From the NCBI RefSeq assembly GCF_013122565.1, contig NZ_CP053258.1: a stretch of DNA of 64,000 nucleotides; one strand, 5' to 3'. This document shows, one piece after another, positions 4,021-4,149 of this stretch (its first letter is position 1; every line of letters starts with the position of its first letter). Origin of the DNA: Escherichia coli (lineage in GTDB: Bacteria > Pseudomonadota > Gammaproteobacteria > Enterobacterales > Enterobacteriaceae). The notes beneath the pieces were generated by a model. The model did no database searches and had not been told where the DNA came from. It saw only the letters and a program-made list of their open reading frames with translations. The translations under genes were made by a program, and so were the position numbers.

Positions 4021-4055
4021 AAAAAAACCGCAATTTGTGGAACACATTGCGGTTT
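4021..4055 (-). terminator. Rho-independent terminator downstream of tRNA-fMet
   Basis: Inverted repeat aaaccgcaat / attgcggttt; on the minus strand it is followed by a 7-T run. Lies just past the tRNA 3' end. Confidence 0.6.
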
Positions 4056-4072
4056 ATCAGCATTCTAAGTAT

Positions 4073-4149
4073 TGGTTGCGGGGGCCGGATTTGAACCGAC
4101 GACCTTCGGGTTATGAGCCCGACGAGCTACCAGGCTGCTCCACCCCGCG
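4073..4149 (-). tRNA. metV: Initiator tRNA-fMet (anticodon CAU), single copy
   Basis: Reverse complement reads CGCGGGGTGGAGCAGCCTGGTAGCTCGTCGGGCTCATAACCCGAAGGTCGTCGGTTCAAATCCGGCCCCCGCAACCA, 77 nt. C1:A72 mismatch and three G-C pairs in the anticodon stem mark it as initiator. Which of metZ/W/V it corresponds to is undetermined. Confidence 0.95.

Follow-up and report, generated by a model that had tools for sequence, protein, structure and literature searches.

The window analysed here is a stretch of 64,000 nucleotides of Escherichia coli DNA (assembly GCF_013122565.1, contig NZ_CP053258.1). Near its left end, a single initiator tRNA gene lies between part of an accessory sugar cluster and the core gene mltA (Table 1). 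The gene is called by ARAGORN as tRNA-Met(CAT), the sole tRNA in the window, and it matches the Rfam family RF00005 (tRNA; 61.4 bits), with a CAU anticodon and a cloverleaf fold. Numbered by the standard tRNA convention, its 77-nt sequence has the hallmarks of an initiator: a C1/A72 mismatch, and G29-G31 paired with C39-C41 in the anticodon stem. These 77 nt are 100% identical to K-12 metZ, metW and metV alike, and the match to each of the three K-12 copies extends over 81 nt. Residue 46 is a G, which identifies the gene as the fMet1 (metZ/W/V) type and not the A46 type, the variant found in K-12 metY (bioRxiv 10.64898/2026.04.16.719103).

Table 1. Features at and around the initiator tRNA locus (window positions)
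Feature	Position	Strand	Basis
Accessory sugar cluster of ~6.9 kb, right-hand part	1-3994	+	ORFs, syntenic annotation, Pfam
PTS EIIC, truncated by the window start	to 1202	+	
MalY/PatB C-S lyase	1202-2410	+	
SIS/KpsF-GutQ isomerase	2379-2975	+	
2-hydroxyacid/phosphoglycerate dehydrogenase	3047-3994	+	
Terminator-like hairpin and U-run, island-type 3' flank	4021-4058	-	RNA fold, comparison with relatives and K-12
Initiator tRNA gene, tRNA-fMet1 (metZ/W/V type), single copy	4073-4149	-	ARAGORN, Rfam, K-12 identity
metZ promoter/leader, common to the divergent mltA	4150-4357	-	206/208 nt identity to K-12
mltA (murein transglycosylase A), first core gene to the right, divergent from the tRNA	4358-5455	+	protein identity

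In K-12, three tandem tRNA-fMet genes with 33-nt spacers are found between amiC and mltA, which bears out the metZ-metW-metV tandem named in the initial annotation. The identical 77-bp tRNA genes and near-identical 33-bp spacers give metZWV arrays a period of 110 bp. The spacer sequence is TCACCGTACTGCTTT(T)ACTTCATCAAATTT, and it occurs in two forms, TCACCGTACTGCTTTACTTCATCAAATTTTAAT and TCACCGTACTGCTTTTACTTCATCAAATTT(T)GAT. The window shares with K-12 the locus itself (divergent mltA, amiC side), the identical tRNA and the leader, but has one gene where K-12 has three head-to-tail copies, and only K-12 has the 33-nt spacers. No further copy of the tRNA 3' end is present anywhere in the window, and the spacer is absent across its whole length at up to 3 mismatches. 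The junction in the window is clean, consisting of an intact tRNA joined to an island-type 3' flank, with no leftover spacer or partial tRNA.

Homology to K-12 ends precisely at the tRNA 3' end (window positions 4071-4073), where the accessory DNA starts; the terminator therefore belongs to the island-type flank, whereas K-12 has the metV terminator. The hairpin begins ~15 nt past the CCA end and is followed by seven U (-19.7 kcal/mol, z = -4.9; 0 of 200 shuffles as good). A consensus terminator scan made no call at this hairpin because of its internal loop, although a G+C-rich hairpin followed by a U-run is the form of an intrinsic (Rho-independent) terminator, and the element is predicted to act as one. 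Its sequence is the same in island-bearing relatives and unlike the K-12 metV terminator, and strains with a T6SS island have a related terminator sequence after the tRNA. ARAGORN, Rfam and RNA folding thus uphold what the initial annotation describes, one tRNA-fMet gene followed by a terminator of its own and flanked by an accessory cluster and mltA.

On the other side of the gene, the only mismatches to K-12 in the leader are at 4214 and 4216. As read from the sequence, the metZ promoter in the window would comprise a -10 element TATAGT (4163-4168), a -35 element TTGCAT (4185-4190) and an A-tract (4193-4200). A consensus promoter scan called nothing at the metZ locus. As both the promoter and the terminator scans were empty here, the assignments rely on K-12 identity and folding. 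Synteny with K-12 places the tRNA gene in the metZ operon position: mltA is its divergent neighbour, and the metZ promoter/leader separates the two. The start of mltA is at 4358, not 4359; the encoded protein matches the common E. coli MltA exactly, and the relatives are all annotated with mltA here. Within mltA, window positions 4714-5413 differ at 36 of 700 nt (5%) from L018, the closest island relative, and by 2.5-3% from every other strain, a pattern that resembles an imported recombination tract beside the tRNA with synonymous changes only. In the spacer between mltA and tcdA (5507-5652) lies a repeat-like element of ~145 bp that is shared by the window, K-12 and TB06051. This element is missing from MB53, SBF45 and L008, has an 84%-identity copy elsewhere in TB06051 and is a break point of short-read contigs.

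Several other differences were observed further to the right in the window. The adjacent core (4150-29000) is ~99% identical to complete E. coli genomes (best 98.9% over 25 kb), above the region of the type I-E CRISPR-Cas system (53490-64000; cas3, casA onward), which has ~95% identity to the best complete genomes. The best E. coli matches to the 39.5-64 kb part span ~42 kb, compared with 24.5 kb in the window. In the gap between relA (ending at 40119) and mazG (40215-41006), the mazEF toxin-antitoxin pair is absent (40120-40172; ~690 bp in TB06051). After eno, a minus-strand ORF of 384 aa is found (44317-45471), with ~880 bp of sequence unlike TB06051, which has a four-gene TPM-domain/LemA cluster of ~3.4 kb after eno. 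Between queE and queD (46648-47288) the window has ~640 bp where TB06051 has about 12 kb; the missing stretch includes a CRISPR array and ygcE, yqcE, ygcW, ygcU, ygcS, ygcR, ygcQ, ygcP, ygcO and ygcN.

The accessory sugar cluster and the metV site

The left end of the sugar cluster is outside the window, and its completeness was judged in MB53, SBF45, ETEC1721, WP2-S18-ESBL-07 and 12089. These five syntenic loci also supplied the gene annotation, with Pfam assignments from the relatives L008 and L018. In all five genomes the order is amiC, PRD, EIIC, MalY, SIS, dehydrogenase and tRNA. The complete cluster, whose left boundary is the stop codon of amiC, stands in place of the 73 bp that otherwise separate this codon from the last tRNA gene. 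No integrase gene is present in these five complete clusters, and a search of the five loci and the window for an att-like repeat of the tRNA 3' end (final 25-28 nt, up to 4 mismatches) found none. Of the features of islands that target tRNA genes, the cluster thus has the start at the tRNA 3' end and lacks the integrase and the att direct repeat. Site-specific island integration was rejected for this cluster, which has neither.

The metV gene is a documented island site, at which both PAI-CFT073-metV and a T6SS cluster have been described (PMC2831201, PMC3032704); E. coli W and CFT073 have the T6SS cluster downstream of metV (PMC3032704). The cluster in the window corresponds to the c3405-c3410 set of PAI-CFT073-metV (PMC2831201). 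Both encode a PRD regulator, an EIIBC, a MalY/PatB protein, a SIS isomerase and a 2-hydroxyacid dehydrogenase, and in the window, as in PAI-CFT073-metV and the T6SS clusters, accessory DNA directly follows the last tRNA-fMet gene. Unlike PAI-CFT073-metV, loci of the window type (MB53, SBF45, ETEC1721) have the ~6.9-kb PTS cluster alone between amiC and the tRNA, with neither the T6SS part nor an integrase. In some other strains, the T6SS cluster occupies the same spot as the PTS cluster. PTS-type and T6SS-type flanks (L012, L014 and L020 compared) share a homologous terminator past the last tRNA gene. Diversity within the PTS cluster is 0.35-0.4% (L036, L037 and L004 against window positions 1-4072), compared with 2.5-2.9% in the adjacent core. 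The sequences suggest that PTS-type and T6SS-type flanks may be remnants of one larger metV island.

Copy number across E. coli and beside the island

The tandem arrangement was surveyed by searching 5,426 complete E. coli genomes with a query for the tRNA-spacer-tRNA junction. The junction was found in 5,195 genomes, with a total of 10,307 occurrences, and was absent from 231 (4.3%). A query with the tRNA alone matched 21,176 places (median 4 per genome, range 1-8), in agreement with the 21,157 fMet genes predicted from the junctions. Estimated from the 10,307 junctions in 5,195 genomes and from samples of 60 genomes, the locus has two copies in ~3%, three in ~91% and four or more in 1-2% of genomes. 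Long-query BLAST coverage joins pieces across copies and is unfit for counting them; one-copy loci were therefore counted directly with a short query of 203-223 nt (3' flank, tRNA and leader). This gave 59 one-copy loci with island-type flanks, 13 of them strictly like the window, 109 with the K-12-type flank and 114 with the ST131/T6SS-type flank, the last overlapping the 59 island-type loci. Multi-copy arrays numbered 1,541 with the T6SS-type flank and 1,019 with the island/PTS-type flank. One copy accounts for ~2% of loci with strict PTS-type flanks, ~3% with K-12-type flanks and 5-7% with broader island-type flanks, a figure inflated by one sequencing project.

One-copy genomes therefore occur on three different 3' flanks. 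The four with the PTS island differ from one another by 0.3-0.8%, so the one-copy state is recurrent and the alternative of one single one-copy clone was rejected. Every one-copy example has the same scarless structure: the first-copy leader, a single intact tRNA, then the 3' flank that belongs to the last copy. In the two-copy strain MB53, the remaining spacer is of the proximal type. The one-copy relatives have a total of two fMet genes. The closest island relative of the window, GCA_052983875.1 (L018), has 0 differences in 4,105 nt, yet has three copies; given this, the one-copy state is private to the window assembly among the sequences retrieved. A single gene could instead be ancestral in the lineage, with three copies arising by duplication elsewhere. 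Nothing points specifically to this, beyond the fact that arrays can expand, as 4 to 7 copies exist in some genomes. Three-copy arrays that share one pair of spacer types occur on all the flanks sampled (no-island, PTS-type and T6SS-type), and the one-copy genomes are scattered and do not form one deep clade. As the nearest relative has three copies, the ancestral reading is effectively refuted and deserves almost no credence.

The initial annotation linked a change in copy number to insertion or excision of the island. Loss of copies could result from gain or loss of the island in either of two ways, through unequal crossover in the array during homologous entry or through site-specific integration or excision at the tRNA 3' end. 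Some features of the site speak for such an event: metV is a known island site (PMC2831201, PMC3032704), K-12 homology stops right at the tRNA 3' end, and the tRNA is also the exact point where divergence from other strains changes by a factor of seven, from 0.35-0.4% on the island side to 2.5-2.9% on the mltA side. The island of the window is 100% identical to that of L018 while mltA is 2.8% different. On these data the tRNA array appears to mark a genealogical boundary, which would fit recombination at the site, but equally so in three-copy genomes, since L008 and L018 show the same break. Comparison of the junction in genomes with and without the island did not bear the link out, as one-copy loci occur in both and the island-bearing genomes mostly retain three copies. 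The PTS cluster is beside three copies in L008, L018, O26 11368 and many more, and beside two in MB53; one-copy loci are found where there is no island at all (TUM10008) and next to the T6SS island (ST131 2017_APHA). Together with a complete cluster that begins at the amiC stop codon and has no integrase or att repeat, these observations indicate that insertion or excision of the island does not set the copy number. We regard an island-driven loss as very unlikely, and the one-copy state as apparently independent of the neighbouring PTS island. The difference between the two sides of the tRNA also raised the prospect of a chimera of two strains joined there. This was rejected: contigs L019 and L027 of the single run SRR11451224 match the window at 100% on both sides of the tRNA, and the flanks therefore come from one sample.

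Contraction in the cell or in the assembly

We put at about even the chance that metZWV lost two of its three tandem genes in the cell. The proposed course of events is as follows. A promoter-proximal tRNA copy would pair out of register with a distal copy, the 77-bp repeats being identical. RecA-mediated unequal exchange or replication slippage would then remove two 110-bp units. The product would be the metZ promoter/leader, one intact tRNA and the 3' flank and terminator of the last copy, joined with no scar. With a K-12-like promoter and its own terminator, the surviving gene would be expected to be expressed. Recombination between tandem copies had been put forward in the initial annotation as the route to one copy, and the repeat structure and the scarless junction both fit it. 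Tandem initiator-tRNA genes are reportedly amplified in Salmonella fmt/def mutants (ref. 39 of PMC3017606). That case resembles one-copy metZ in that the same array changes copy number via recombination between repeats, but it is a gain and not a loss, and it arose under strong laboratory selection.

The scarless junction fits the out-of-register loss of two 110-bp units, whether this took place in the cell or in the assembler. If the latter, the strain would have two or three copies, and the assembler or polisher would have threaded the 77-bp repeat once and dropped two units. We give this a substantial probability, though one short of even. The one-copy records are strongly grouped by sequencing project: about 47 of 48 AVS ST131 chromosomes have one copy while two or more are present in the ST131 genomes of other laboratories, and the series CP0672xx, GF, STS/STK, WP and TUM are over-represented. 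Several derivatives of K-12, itself a three-copy strain, are among the one-copy records (J53, MC1061, MG1655p, C3026 and others). Pairs of near-identical sequences also disagree in copy number. Strain 12089 (one copy) and the draft GCA_023763505.1 (three) have 0 SNPs in 12,959 nt, and the window has 0 SNPs in 4,105 nt from the three-copy L018. A short-read contig of SRR11451224 ends 30 nt into the tRNA and short reads alone cannot span the array, although a break at this point is expected for any repeat and carries no information on copy number. Among the AVS isolates, AVS0096 (ST1193) was assembled with Unicycler as a hybrid, a procedure based on the short-read graph (PMC8340865).

The glyVXY array, which has the same architecture, serves as a control. 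It is recorded with one copy in only 15 genomes, 15 times more rarely than metZ, and three glyVXY genes are present in 3 of the 4 metZ-one-copy assemblies checked (ETEC1721, WP2-S18-ESBL-07 and THO-015). The longest exact repeats are alike in metZWV and glyVXY (92-94 nt), and k-mer-based collapse should strike both. Rare contraction of glyVXY and its intact state in these assemblies mean that generic assembler collapse leaves the excess at metZ unexplained. Short-read drafts, moreover, usually resolve the three metZ copies (8 of 8 loci). Contracted and expanded variants of the metZWV array are both seen among complete genomes, which likewise favours a real contraction. The control also has points in favour of collapse, as metZ too is single in 6 of the 15 assemblies with one-copy glyVXY (~0.6 expected), and AVS0750 has two glyVXY genes where other ST131 genomes have three. 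An ST131 clade marker was considered for the AVS batch; the glyVXY state differs between THO-015 (three genes) and AVS0750 (two).

Contraction in the cell might also be more than an accident of recombination. The metZWV array could act as a natural dosage dial, with one-copy contraction arising recurrently and being kept or selected in slow-growth, non-host settings. One-copy contraction is 15 times as frequent at metZ as at the comparable glyVXY array. Water, wastewater, food and long-stored laboratory strains make up about half of the 119 one-copy records listed, compared with 2 of 60 in a random sample. Such a dial would fit the laboratory benefit of fewer initiator-tRNA genes in poor media, but we consider it improbable.

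Initiator tRNA dosage

The initial annotation also held that the dosage of initiator tRNA matters, and the literature agrees (PMC3017606, PMC9981150). In K-12, the level of tRNA-fMet tracks the number of its genes, and cells tolerate deletion of metZWV at the price of a mild growth defect, sensitivity to cold and a relaxed selection of initiators (PMC3017606). PMC9981150, citing Samhita 2014, states that a reduced number of initiator genes carries a cost in rich medium and is of benefit in poor medium. Laboratory metZWV or metY knockouts and metZWV promoter-down mutants (Kapoor et al. 2011; Samhita et al. 2014, as cited there) resemble the window in their reduced dosage. Those strains were engineered or selected, whereas the state in the window is on record for a natural isolate, which presumably retains two of its four genes.

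Taken together, the interpretation given in the initial annotation is partly supported: recombination between tandem copies is plausible, and the link with the island is unsupported. A single-copy metZ is itself an ordinary finding and nothing new in kind. As one-copy metZ records group by project and turn up even in K-12 derivatives, tandem tRNA gene counts in 'complete' assemblies appear unreliable, and comparisons of dosage that use them need checking at the level of the reads. If the contraction is real and metY is present elsewhere in the genome, the strain would be left with two of the usual four initiator-tRNA genes and with about half the tRNA-fMet. The effects expected from the laboratory strains would be slightly slower growth in rich medium, better growth in poor medium and looser start-site fidelity, which would amount to a small physiological footnote for one isolate.
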